Source of the DNA: an uncultured Enterobacteriaceae bacterium
Lineage (GTDB): Bacteria; Pseudomonadota; Gammaproteobacteria; Burkholderiales; SG8-39
DNA length: 64,000 nucleotides
Assembly (NCBI GenBank): GCA_964477695.1
Contig: CAYZFN010000228.1
Location: forward strand, 10,281-74,280
Direction of reading: 5' to 3'
The notes under the pieces were generated by a model. It made no database searches, had not been told where the DNA came from, and was given only the letters and a program-made list of their open reading frames with translations. A program made the translations under genes and the position numbers. Below are positions 29,601-31,114 of the stretch, piece by piece (positions within the stretch are counted from its first letter, which is position 1; each line of letters starts with the position of its first letter).

Positions 29601-30430
29601 CGCCCGCGGAAGAAAAGCCAGCGACCACCGAAGAGGAACCGGCAGCCAAAGAGGAAGCTCCCCCGGAAGACAAGCAGCCGCCGAAGAAGTCCGCGGCCGA
29701 AGCCAAGCGCGACGAAATGCGCCGCCAGATCGACGACCTCGAGCAGGAACGCACCGCCGCGCAGCAAAAGGAGCAGCAGCTGGACCTGGAACGCTTCAAG
29801 TTGACGGCCAGGGAGGCGAAGCTCAATAGCGACCTTCAGATAAAGGAGGGGCAACCCGGCCGGCTCGAGCGTGGAACAGAGGCGCGTGCGAATGCCCTCG
29901 ACGAATTGAACTCGTTAAAGAAGCAGATCGCGGAGCTCGACGGTCAAATCGACGCAGAGAAGACCACCCAGACGAAGGCAAGCGCCAAGCAAGAGGGTTT
30001 ACGGAACCAGCTCGCCGGGCGCACCGAGGGCGACGTCGCCATTCAGAAGAAGTACGAAGGCGAGTTGCCGCCGGAGGCCAAGGCTCGCCCGGCGACGGTT
30101 GGAGACAGCCCCACCCAAAATGCAGATGTTGCTCGCTGGGTCGAACAACTCGAAAAGATGAATGCAAAGGACATCCGCGTCGACCAGATCCAAGTCGATG
30201 CGGATTCGAACGTTGTCGGCGAAAACCGTCCCGACCTGCAGTTCACTCTGGACGGTGAACGGTATTACGTGGAGTGGGACCGGCCGAGCTCCGCGCGCGG
30301 GCCCGAGCACGAAATTCGGATCCGCGCCAATGATCCTACCGCCACAAGCGGAAGGACAATGGAGGTCAAGCCCGGCTATGCTCTTCCTAATTTCCGGGGC
30401 GCCAAGATCACGCTTATCACGATGGAATAA
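26633..30430 (+). CDS. Candidate eCIS effector 3 (1265 aa): DUF4157-type domain, hydrophobic core, E/K/P/T-rich linker, coiled coil, small C-terminal toxin-like tip
   Basis: ATG 26633. AAGNQQTLRALG, DELEADRAA, GEPLTPRLRAPYERFFHADLSAVRIH, LLAHETAHVVQQ (HExxH 27224-27238). Hydrophobic stretches at 27915-29300 and low-complexity KEE/PAA at ~29430-29690. The C-terminal tip contains NRPDLQFTLDGERYYVEWD. Confidence 0.8.
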   Translation: MAESRKMFAAPVKAPARPKTAPAPPMRAASLAPGPAASGEAAGNQQTLRALGIHPALAVSAPTDPDELEADRAADAFVARAPLPVGFGARGVLADIRRKCASCEEERISRKADGSSARSAAIHALPTSRGEPLTPRLRAPYERFFHADLSAVRIHTGGGADAAARSFSATAFARGNDVYFRDGSFDPSSRNGARLLAHETAHVVQQARRGGEAIHRQAEAPGVLGGLLSAGADVALRVVERLAPGVVTFFRGVRGTIAAHVSAAFDSLLGSVAARMQGRGLAGALESILTELAGDALKGAGDLVTGHCAALGAQAQLLLKIGAKLGSDALARLREKAAAIGAGFSELWQLYGAPAAETVRKALGDVWKDITEQVSEWWQELAPVRERAGKAWDYVVQHVTEGYTTLQGYLDKLFAEAVKDWEEARKRILPFMGVIKVVAAIMLLLSPAGPIVALGLAAYGLYEAGSFLWNHWGGRLTQDMREYLSKQVLPAVTKQLDALHQKVDDAKAWLGSLADELAAQGAALLQEIAAIPAVQAVAGVVDGIAADLQDFGKRARAAVDEFAKSATEFCDAAAFYLQPIGEFLRQSTLVLTLGPFALLDDGVWQSVNEFAAIAQRTPCLREMAEFIRLPVILEAAGRFRAGMKAAWTLVKNPEPIWAALHDALTPMATKVPALATTALAGILYPTDEEHRRGVEKYLRPVVDTFIANWWEELKKLGWTLIWPFDEMGEQLPKLVEHGSKAIGALFDLEIGLALDELLAMQQSANAVLGALWGWFAVASVLIGGALGALGVEFTAGASIAAGAGAGWALAEEVGMALLVTAAATEGLIIARSMFDIRFTNSLMKPEERANENEKDYKSIANSVFTLAVMGGLLVLGAIAQKIASAVWDLVADFVPGKNAITEFLNKPRGGQGTEPGTTGQTGLTGDTGAGDTSTTTPKKETGAVEDTTAKEETTTKEEAPAAKEEPATKEEKPTPDTPEEKAAPVEDKAPPAEEKPATTEEEPAAKEEAPPEDKQPPKKSAAEAKRDEMRRQIDDLEQERTAAQQKEQQLDLERFKLTAREAKLNSDLQIKEGQPGRLERGTEARANALDELNSLKKQIAELDGQIDAEKTTQTKASAKQEGLRNQLAGRTEGDVAIQKKYEGELPPEAKARPATVGDSPTQNADVARWVEQLEKMNAKDIRVDQIQVDADSNVVGENRPDLQFTLDGERYYVEWDRPSSARGPEHEIRIRANDPTATSGRTMEVKPGYALPNFRGAKITLITME

Positions 30431-30433
30431 GGC

Positions 30434-31114
30434 ATGGCATCGCAAGCTGGAGATTTCGTGACCTTTCCACCACCGGCGATGGGCTTTTTCAAGCTACCTA
30501 TCGCGCCTGTGCACACTCACCTTTGCGACTGGTTAAACGAAGTCGCAGAACCCAGAGGCATCACAGTGCGCAGCCAACCGACAAGCAGACCCTTGCCAGA
30601 AGCGCTTCAGTTACTCAAGCCGCTGACAACGCGAGAGATCGAGCGCTATCTCCTCGCCCCTACGGAAAGCGAGTGGACGGCGTACGTCGATAATCTGCGG
30701 CTGGGTACGGACGCATCGGCCATCGCCTATCTGTCAAGACGAATGGGTTGCATGGGTTTGTATTTCGTCGCGAAACCTCTGCAACGCAAGAGCAAACCAA
30801 GCGGAGACCTCTATACGGGGGCAATGGTGTTTTCGCTCTATGGGCCGCGTTCTGCGTCGTTCAATGGAAATCAGATTCGAGACGTTCGTGTCTTTGGTGA
30901 CGTTGGTGGCTGGGTCTTCCAACAGACCGGAACACCGCTGCCGTTCGAGAATACCGATGCGTACGATGCGAACCGGGTGGAAGGCCGGTTCACGCTCGAC
31001 ATGCTGAAGCAATACCTTCAGAAGATGAGCATCCGCGCGTTCGACAAGGCTTTTTACCTGCCGCGAAACCGCGAGCCTGGCCACCTTGTTGAAGTGAGCC
31101 GCAATGGCAGATGA
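30434..31114 (+). CDS. Hypothetical protein (226 aa); candidate immunity protein for effector 3
   Basis: ATG 30434, 3 nt after the effector stop. Shares the local GC drop (~50-55%) with the effector's 3' tip. No domain recognised. Confidence 0.5.
   Translation: MASQAGDFVTFPPPAMGFFKLPIAPVHTHLCDWLNEVAEPRGITVRSQPTSRPLPEALQLLKPLTTREIERYLLAPTESEWTAYVDNLRLGTDASAIAYLSRRMGCMGLYFVAKPLQRKSKPSGDLYTGAMVFSLYGPRSASFNGNQIRDVRVFGDVGGWVFQQTGTPLPFENTDAYDANRVEGRFTLDMLKQYLQKMSIRAFDKAFYLPRNREPGHLVEVSRNGR

Follow-up and report, generated by a model that had tools for sequence, protein, structure and literature searches.

A candidate toxin-immunity cassette with a predicted restriction-endonuclease-like fold at the end of an extracellular contractile injection system effector

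The DNA analyzed here, a stretch of 64,000 nucleotides from contig CAYZFN010000228.1 of an uncultured Enterobacteriaceae bacterium (hereafter the window), carries the genes of an extracellular contractile injection system (eCIS). Its third effector-like open reading frame (ORF), which we call effector 3, is followed by a small ORF, ORF2. We conclude that the C-terminal tip of effector 3 and ORF2 are very probably a toxin of nuclease-like fold and its cognate immunity protein, which form one mobile module. Both reading frames are as a preliminary description of this DNA had given them, with the end of effector 3 followed, 3 nt after its stop codon, by a 226-aa ORF at 30434–31114, and the tip peptide quoted there, VGENRPDLQFTLDGERYYVEWD, is present at residues 1195–1216 of effector 3. 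From the N-terminus, effector 3 consists of a DUF4157/eCIS_core domain, a long helical body with transmembrane-like segments, a low-complexity linker, a coiled coil, and the tip. The DUF4157 domain contains an HExxH motif (HETAH, residues 198–202), and the tube, baseplate, fiber, and AAA ATPase genes lie upstream of effector 3 on the same strand, the arrangement by which eCIS DUF4157 effectors are recognized. By its domain and its position in the operon, effector 3 is assigned as an eCIS DUF4157 effector, the loading and delivery of which are predicted.

The tip belongs to a large and widespread family. A search with the tip as a single sequence returned one homologue (P0001), whose 137-aa ORF is called separately, overlapping the end of an Rhs-repeat gene, with a 243-aa homologue of ORF2 after it. 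Two other ORF2 homologues (P0005 and P0007) lie behind secreted proteins with the same C-terminal tip, and the carrier ahead of P0005 has a signal peptide of the lipoprotein type. A profile built from four tips retrieved 417 proteins, and an exhaustive profile search retrieved 904 clusters at 50% identity, 732 of which have E ≤ 1e-10; 178 relatives were found in species-representative genomes. In nearly all matches, which are proteins of 125–3738 aa, the domain is located at the C-terminus or within a few residues of it. The members share, in order, the motifs G-x-S-P-T-Q-N, R-V-[ND]-Q-x-Q, and G-x-N-R-P-D-L-Q, followed by R-x-x-x-E-[YFW]-[DE] and then S-x-R-G-x-x-H-x-x-R-x-x-x-N-D-P. The family is present in at least nine phyla, and the relatives in species-representative genomes come from Myxococcota, Actinomycetota, Bacteroidota, Chloroflexota, Planctomycetota, Verrucomicrobiota, Acidobacteriota, Gemmatimonadota, and Alphaproteobacteria. 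Its carriers include Rhs/SpvB proteins, Rhs proteins with a DUF4123 chaperone as in type VI secretion systems (T6SS), RTX proteins with a VWA domain, LysM proteins, myxobacterial lipoproteins, and eCIS_core proteins, and the tip was also found on five further DUF4157 effectors. One C-terminal domain on unrelated N-terminal scaffolds, by which polymorphic toxins are known, is what we observe for the tip.

Two further observations concern the family as a whole. Just upstream of the SPTQN motif, many members (for example P0013, P0049, and P0116) conserve a pre-toxin motif, R-L-P-Q-D-x-x-V-x-P-x-x-P ... L-x-x-N-R-P-[IV]-G, which is degenerate in the window copy (ELPPEAKARPATVG) and may be a processing or recombination junction. 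In addition, a 129-aa member (P0120) is annotated in assemblies of Salmonella enterica subsp. enterica, an outlier in a family that is otherwise found mainly in environmental bacteria.

Profile hidden Markov models of the tip and ORF2 families were run against the six-frame ORFs of 80 loci found by searching with the tip alone. A gene of the ORF2 family adjoins the tip in 79 of these loci, and in the only remaining one (L022) the contig ends 2 nt past the tip, so the pairing is obligate in the loci examined. Except in L011 and L012, where it is convergent, the partner gene lies directly downstream on the same strand as the tip. L043, L051, L062, L068, L071, L077, and L083 show tandem arrays or additional or orphan copies, among them tip-less copies of the ORF2-family gene. 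Three tandem tip-immunity pairs are present in L051 (Cystobacter fuscus) and two in L043; in L062, a complete toxin and its immunity gene precede an orphan tip fragment of 130 aa and another immunity gene. Such arrays are classic for polymorphic toxins. Because the pairing is independent of the delivery scaffold, ORF2 would serve the toxin domain rather than the secretion system, which is the behavior of an immunity gene. The small downstream gene and the orphan, extra, and tandem copies are both hallmarks of polymorphic toxins, and the adjacency in 79 of 80 loci reads as the genomic signature of a polymorphic toxin with a cognate immunity protein. With the tip on many unrelated scaffolds and its partner adjoining it almost everywhere, the toxin/immunity cassette proposed in the preliminary description is well supported.

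The first ~44 residues of ORF2 are conserved among its homologues, with G17 and F18 invariant. Public gene calls of ORF2 (P0002 and P0266) begin later, at the GTG of V45 (182-aa call, P0002) and at M16 (211-aa call). Given the conserved N-terminus, the start should be the ATG at 30434, or M16 at the latest, and not the GTG used in P0002; the longer, 226-aa call is likely correct. ORF2 has no match in Pfam or NCBIfam and no sequence relative in the PDB, and a Pfam scan of 35 members of its family detected no Imm family. Between the window and a related locus described below (L090), ORF2 is 65% and the tip ~90% identical in amino acid sequence, showing that ORF2 evolves faster.

How the tip might act was approached through its predicted structure. 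An AlphaFold2 model built from 50 sequences has a pLDDT (predicted local distance difference test) of 85 and a pTM (predicted template-modeling score) of 0.80 and consists of a helix, three strands, a second helix, and two further strands (in tip numbering, H29–44, E48–52, E71–75, E78–85, H92–102, E110–113, and E128–132). The α-β-β-β-α-β core of the PD-(D/E)xK nucleases is contained in this predicted topology, with D1201 just ahead of strand 2 and E1214 and D1216 inside strand 3. The top Foldseek matches in the PDB were Can2, the R2 restriction-like endonuclease, Bax1, DrdV, SfsA, BspD6I, FAN1, AddAB, I-Ssp6803I, XisH, and Hjc, and the named matches in BFVD included PD-(D/E)XK, VRR-NUC, restriction endonuclease, and Holliday-junction resolvase proteins. 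Both lists are dominated by PD-(D/E)xK nucleases, none of them at E ≤ 0.001. Over 335 distinct tip-domain sequences, G1196 and Q1185 are kept in all, P1200, H1226, and R1229 in 334, R1182, R1210, and N1233 in 333, D1234 in 332, and Q1162 in 324, and the three acidic residues listed in Table 1 are nearly or fully invariant. The D...(D/E)-x-K signature of the superfamily is matched only in part, and the site is non-canonical. The preliminary guess of a PD-(D/E)xK toxin tip is therefore upheld at the level of the fold, by the model topology and the Foldseek lists, but not at the level of the catalytic lysine, a Tox-REase Pfam match, or a significant Foldseek hit. We consider the tip to represent a restriction-endonuclease-fold (REase-fold) toxin family with a non-canonical site, probably a nuclease, its chemistry being a prediction. 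The window tip retains every invariant residue of the family and is likely active.

Several points weigh against a nuclease toxin with an immunity partner. The Pfam, NCBIfam, and PDB sequence searches were all negative: the window tip had no match in Pfam or NCBIfam, Pfam scans of 50 tip members and 35 ORF2-family members gave scattered sub-threshold matches only (DUF881 in nine tip members, best E = 2.7e-4, and one CoiA_nuc at E = 0.19) and none to a Tox-REase or Imm family, and sequence-profile searches of the PDB returned nothing meaningful. We found no experimental report on any member of the tip family. The Foldseek matches are weak, with a best E of 0.036 in the PDB and 0.015 in BFVD and TM scores of 0.3–0.46. 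The position of the ExK lysine is occupied by D (296) or E (39) and never by K in the 335 tips, whereas all ten Tox-REase clades keep it. For ORF2, the AlphaFold2 model has a pLDDT of 77 from a shallow alignment of only 6 sequences, and its Foldseek search against the PDB gave only noise (TM ~0.1); having no fold match, the model does not reveal the mode of neutralization. The missing lysine and the weak fold matches would also suit a tip that uses an REase-like scaffold for another chemistry, as a metal-independent RNase or tRNase or as a non-nuclease enzyme acting through invariant His, Arg, Gln, and Asn residues instead of a D/E/K metal site. Large sets of invariant polar residues are seen in many metal-independent RNase toxins, and the tip has such a set (Q1162, R1182, Q1185, Q1187, N1198, R1199, Q1203, R1210, H1226, R1229, N1233, and D1234). 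We nevertheless think this unlikely, given that the three invariant acidic residues fall exactly at the metal-ligand places of PD...(D/E)x(K) in the predicted strands and that the named Foldseek neighbors are nearly all DNases of the PD-(D/E)xK superfamily. ORF2, for its part, resembles no known immunity family or fold, and adjacency by itself cannot tell an immunity protein from a chaperone, adaptor, or activator of the tip. Such an accessory role appears very improbable to us, since the gene accompanies the tip under Rhs, T6SS-linked Rhs, eCIS, lipoprotein, and RTX carriers alike, which identifies the toxin domain as its partner, and since it shows tip-less copies and tandem arrays typical of immunity genes (L068, L071, L077, and L083) as well as the faster evolution described above.

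The cassette also stands out by its composition. Sliding-window GC analysis proved the fall in GC over the tip and ORF2, noted in the preliminary description, to be real, with the value of 50–55% given there lying slightly below the computed GC of 0.588 (tip) and 0.562 (ORF2). The mean GC of the window is 0.682 with a standard deviation (sd) of 0.040 in 300-nt windows, and 11 of the 19 windows with GC below 0.60 form one block at 29,901–31,300 with GC of 0.55–0.59. Because GC at the third codon position (GC3) also falls in the tip and ORF2 (Table 1), the drop is more than an amino-acid effect. In a phase-aware analysis with 300-nt windows, 30,051–31,200 is the longest run of best-phase GC below 0.72 in the 64 kb, and all remaining runs are 500 nt or shorter. 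The genes flanking this island on both sides are normal, with the downstream genes back at a GC3 of 0.80–0.98. The main, sharper GC3 step, near 30,050, coincides with the beginning of the conserved tip domain (~30,068), and a weaker first step, near 29,330, with that of the low-complexity linker. Low GC3 is not intrinsic to the cassette: in 38 other high-GC loci, the mean difference from the carrier body is −0.01 for the tip (sd 0.08) and +0.03 for the immunity gene (sd 0.09), compared with −0.18 and −0.22 in the window, and a similar drop is seen in only 2–3 of the 38. The sole other loci in which both tip and immunity gene have a GC3 far below that of the carrier body are L058 (Actinoplanes), L062 (Haloechinothrix), and L010 (Chloroflexia), with, in one example, 0.59 and 0.60 against a body of 0.86; these are candidates for recent cassette import, comparable to the window.

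A representative search yielded a full-length orthologue of effector 3 (P0253, on L092, JGI 3300086576) with the same architecture and 55% identity over 1285 aligned columns; a metagenome scan with the effector 3 body found no relatives. The tip of P0253 is 70% identical to the window tip, and a 210-aa homologue of ORF2, 52% identical, begins 3 nt after P0253. The AAA ATPase fragment of L092 is 91% identical to that of the window, and the upstream effector is replaced in L092 by an unrelated 1498-aa protein. Taken together, the 55% identity of effector 3 against 91% for the ATPase and the replaced upstream effector indicate that the cargo region does exchange; as effector 3 (55%) and the immunity protein (52%) illustrate, this region outpaces the machinery by far in evolution or exchange. 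Identity between P0253 and effector 3 drops to 22–32% across the linker and coiled coil, so an exchanged segment may start near 29,330. A closer relative, L090, shares linker, coiled coil, tip, and immunity gene with the window at ~78% nucleotide identity, with ~80% across the linker and coiled-coil segment and no sharp discontinuity over the junctions. A neighbor-joining tree built from 80 immunity proteins groups the four from the window, L090, P0004, and L092 in a single clade.

These comparisons divide the earlier claim that the cassette had been swapped. In its favor, the module is mobile across scaffolds and the GC3 break is real and atypical; against it, both related effector loci that were found, P0253/L092 and L090, keep the same tip and the same immunity clade at the same junction, and none of the available relatives shows a replacement of tip and immunity gene. 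In L092, tip and immunity gene also have a host-like GC3 (0.86 and 0.85), which speaks against a recent swap. The shared clade at a shared junction implies that this tip/immunity clade has been on effector 3 since before the lineages split. The low GC might be no recombination scar at all: effector 3 and the cassette could have been inherited vertically together, with local drift in composition brought about by relaxed GC-biased pressure, by low expression, or by selection for AT-rich codons at the operon end. The same arrangement of effector, tip, and immunity gene in L092, where the AAA ATPase is 91% identical, the single clade of the four immunity proteins, and the smooth identity profile against L090 are all as vertical inheritance would have it, and we regard this explanation as quite conceivable, although we lean away from it. 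Drift does not readily account for a cassette that is not AT-rich by nature, as the 38 high-GC loci and L092 demonstrate, for a step near 30,050 that coincides with a domain boundary, or for the normal GC3 of the neighboring genes on both sides, and it would have to operate in a region that, judged by its divergence and by the replaced neighbor in L092, exchanges its cargo. The compositional anomaly is particular to the window lineage and weaker in L090, and the best reconciliation would be the re-import of a related allele from a relative of lower GC.

We propose the following model for the toxin-immunity cassette. Effector 3 would be eCIS cargo, with the DUF4157 domain and the long body serving loading and delivery, and its last ~120 residues would be a self-contained toxin domain of a large, unnamed polymorphic-toxin family. 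Because of the predicted PD-(D/E)xK fold, the most likely activity of the tip is cleavage of nucleic acid through the acidic cluster D1201, E1214, and D1216, where invariant Arg, His, and Gln residues may replace the canonical lysine. ORF2, the start codon of which lies close enough to the effector 3 stop for translational coupling, would bind and neutralize the tip in the cytoplasm of the producer up to the packing and release of the effector. The tip and immunity gene would recombine as one unit onto many delivery scaffolds, and the foreign codon usage of the module suggests import or re-import later than the rest of the operon. It is plausible that the tip can target bacteria through this eCIS. 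An immunity gene in itself implies only that the toxin is dangerous inside the producer, which needs protection; the occurrence of the family on T6SS-type Rhs proteins and myxobacterial lipoproteins points to use of the domain against bacteria in other settings. If this holds, the tip and its immunity gene would make the eCIS of the window a candidate antibacterial, rather than anti-eukaryotic, injection system.

Polymorphic toxin/immunity systems are a known kind, and the present pair of families is widespread and unnamed. Neither family has a Pfam, NCBIfam, or PDB sequence match in the libraries searched, and the active-site signature is non-canonical. Only tentatively, and with more doubt than confidence, do we suggest that the tip defines a large clade of REase-fold toxins lacking the catalytic lysine (E-x-[D/E] in 335 of 335), perhaps with another catalytic arrangement or substrate than the Tox-REase, PoNe, and BaCT DNases, and with an immunity fold that has no Foldseek match in the PDB. 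eCIS particles are being engineered for protein delivery. Most of their natural cargo lacks annotation, and DUF4157 proteins without another recognized domain make up more than half of the predicted eCIS toxins (PMC11297309). The present locus offers a clean, testable example, with a payload of ~120 aa, a tightly linked predicted neutralizer, and a domain boundary near residue 1146, and the same pair recurs in Rhs, T6SS-linked, and lipoprotein delivery systems in at least nine phyla. Naming both families would annotate ~900 protein clusters and add a nuclease-like toxin type to the polymorphic-toxin catalogue.

The features of the locus are collected in Table 1. The eCIS genes within the window encode a T4 gp19-like tube protein, Baseplate_J, Tail_P2_I, fibers of the collagen and endosialidase-chaperone types, and the AAA ATPase, behind which the effector-like ORFs follow, with effector 3 directly after two others. 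The tail-fiber genes are located at 10195–17117. In a Pfam scan, effectors 2 and 3 both have an N-terminal eCIS_core/DUF4157 domain, and their common region is confined to it (residues 40–213 of effector 3), so that no paralogue within the window helps to define the junction. Effectors 2 and 3 are separated by 4 nt, and, unlike effector 3, effector 2 has no adjoining immunity-like ORF. The effector 1 ORF has no match in Pfam or NCBIfam. The effector 3 body contains three or four long hydrophobic, transmembrane-like segments (residues 437–462, 766–810, and 862–879) that are kept in P0253 (up to 82% identity around residues 762–821) and may be a membrane-insertion or translocation module for the tip. 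Convergent with ORF2, on the minus strand at 31156–33645, is a GH108 muramidase with a PG_binding_3 domain, which matches a 'holin-associated N-acetylmuramidase' model below threshold. The frame plot suggests four successive genes in this region, where the 258-aa and 493-aa ORF calls probably fuse adjacent frames, and these genes are possibly a lysis cassette for particle release. A promoter and terminator scan of 29,800–32,200 found nothing.

Table 1. Features of the window, with positions, strand, and GC at the third codon position (GC3)
Feature	Position	Strand	GC3	Remarks
AAA ATPase of the eCIS	18581–20758	+		
Effector 1 ORF, 769 aa	20460–22769	+		overlaps the AAA ATPase ORF by ~300 nt
Effector 2, 1285 aa	22771–26628	+		DUF4157 aa 114–191, Ntox4 aa 1142–1209
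Effector 3, 1265 aa	26633–30430	+		ORF and translation; TAA stop 30428–30430
Effector 3 body	26633–29332	+	0.84	
DUF4157/eCIS_core, aa 132–208	27026–27256	+		PF13699, E = 5e-26
P/A/K/E/T-rich linker (aa ~901–1010) and coiled coil (aa ~1011–1145)	29333–30067	+	linker 0.74, coiled coil 0.81	connects body to tip
C-terminal toxin tip (predicted), aa 1146–1265	30068–30427	+	0.66	family searches, AlphaFold2 model
Putative catalytic D1201	30233–30235	+		D in 334/335
Putative catalytic E1214	30272–30274	+		E in 334/335
Putative catalytic D1216	30278–30280	+		D or E in 335/335
ORF2, 226 aa, predicted cognate immunity protein	30434–31114	+	0.63	ATG after TAA and GGC
Compositional island, low GC and low GC3	30051–31200			spans tip and ORF2
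Other eCIS genes			0.82–0.92	

Among known systems, effector 3 most resembles in layout the DUF4157 eCIS-associated toxins (EATs) of Geller et al. 2021, which have a DUF4157 domain, a very long linker, and a C-terminal toxin (PMC8213781); like them, it has an N-terminal DUF4157 domain with HExxH, a long linker, a C-terminal toxin (here predicted), and a place at the operon's 3' end after the AAA ATPase. Most described EATs have no recognizable immunity gene (PMC8213781), whereas effector 3 has a tightly coupled one, and the named toxin domains do not include its tip family. Geller et al. took toxin-immunity pairs beside eCIS loci as support for antibacterial eCIS (PMC8213781). At the level of the tip, close parallels are the Tox-REase-1 to -10 polymorphic toxin domains of Zhang et al. 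2012, all ten clades of which keep D-[EQ]xK (PMC3482391). With these, and especially with Tox-REase-7 (PF15649), the tip shares a short C-terminal REase fold (predicted here), Rhs, T6SS, and other scaffolds, and a downstream immunity gene, and UniProt labels one member of our family (P0047, UniRef100_A0ABU5H6V0) as 'Tox-REase-7 domain-containing'. None of 50 tip members, P0047 included, matches the Tox-REase Pfam models at E ≤ 10. Tox-REase-7 has the motif GxxxE, IxD, ExK, Q and the immunity proteins ImmHEAT, Imm23, or Imm54 (PMC3482391), whereas the tip has G-x-S-P-T-Q-N and RPD...E-x-[DE] in place of IxD...ExK, and the ORF2 family (35 members without a Pfam match) is none of these immunity types. 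We rejected Tox-REase-7 on Pfam model, motif, and immunity type.

BaCT/BaCTic of Jana et al. 2020 likewise pairs a PD-(D/E)xK DNase tip, established by experiment and in some cases joined to DUF4157, with an immunity protein encoded downstream (PMC7073777), an arrangement that the predicted tip of effector 3 shares. BaCT was assayed as a 302-residue C-terminal region, keeps (D/E)xK without variation, and occurs almost only in Bacteroidetes (PMC7073777). The window tip differs in being ~100–120 aa long, in lacking the lysine, and in its spread over at least nine phyla, and an identity with BaCT (~300 aa) was rejected on these grounds. PT6 of Nachmias et al., another candidate, is a DUF4157 fusion whose toxicity is limited to the periplasm, and is set apart from the tip by phenotype only. 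SitA/SitI are myxobacterial lipoprotein toxins delivered by outer-membrane exchange (PMC5562445), and many tip-family members in Archangium, Cystobacter, and Hyalangium are lipoproteins of 400–700 aa followed by an immunity gene, often in arrays; the likeness of these carriers is one of architecture only, and the window tip is on an eCIS effector, not a lipoprotein. PoNe/PoNi of Jana et al. 2019 pairs an experimentally established Mg-dependent DNase with an immunity gene that lies directly downstream in ~90% of cases (PMC6688995). The PoNe motif, Kx3GE...GIDx2Y...Yx3ExK, and the DUF1911/DUF1910 domains of PoNi (PMC6688995) do not occur in the tip and ORF2 families, respectively, and PoNe/PoNi was rejected as an identity on motif and immunity type; the immunity families of both PoNe and BaCT differ from that of ORF2. 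With its PD-(D/E)xK-type tip (predicted in our case), its several secretion scaffolds, and a cognate immunity gene directly downstream, PoNe/PoNi would be, by analogy, the best functional counterpart of the tip and ORF2.

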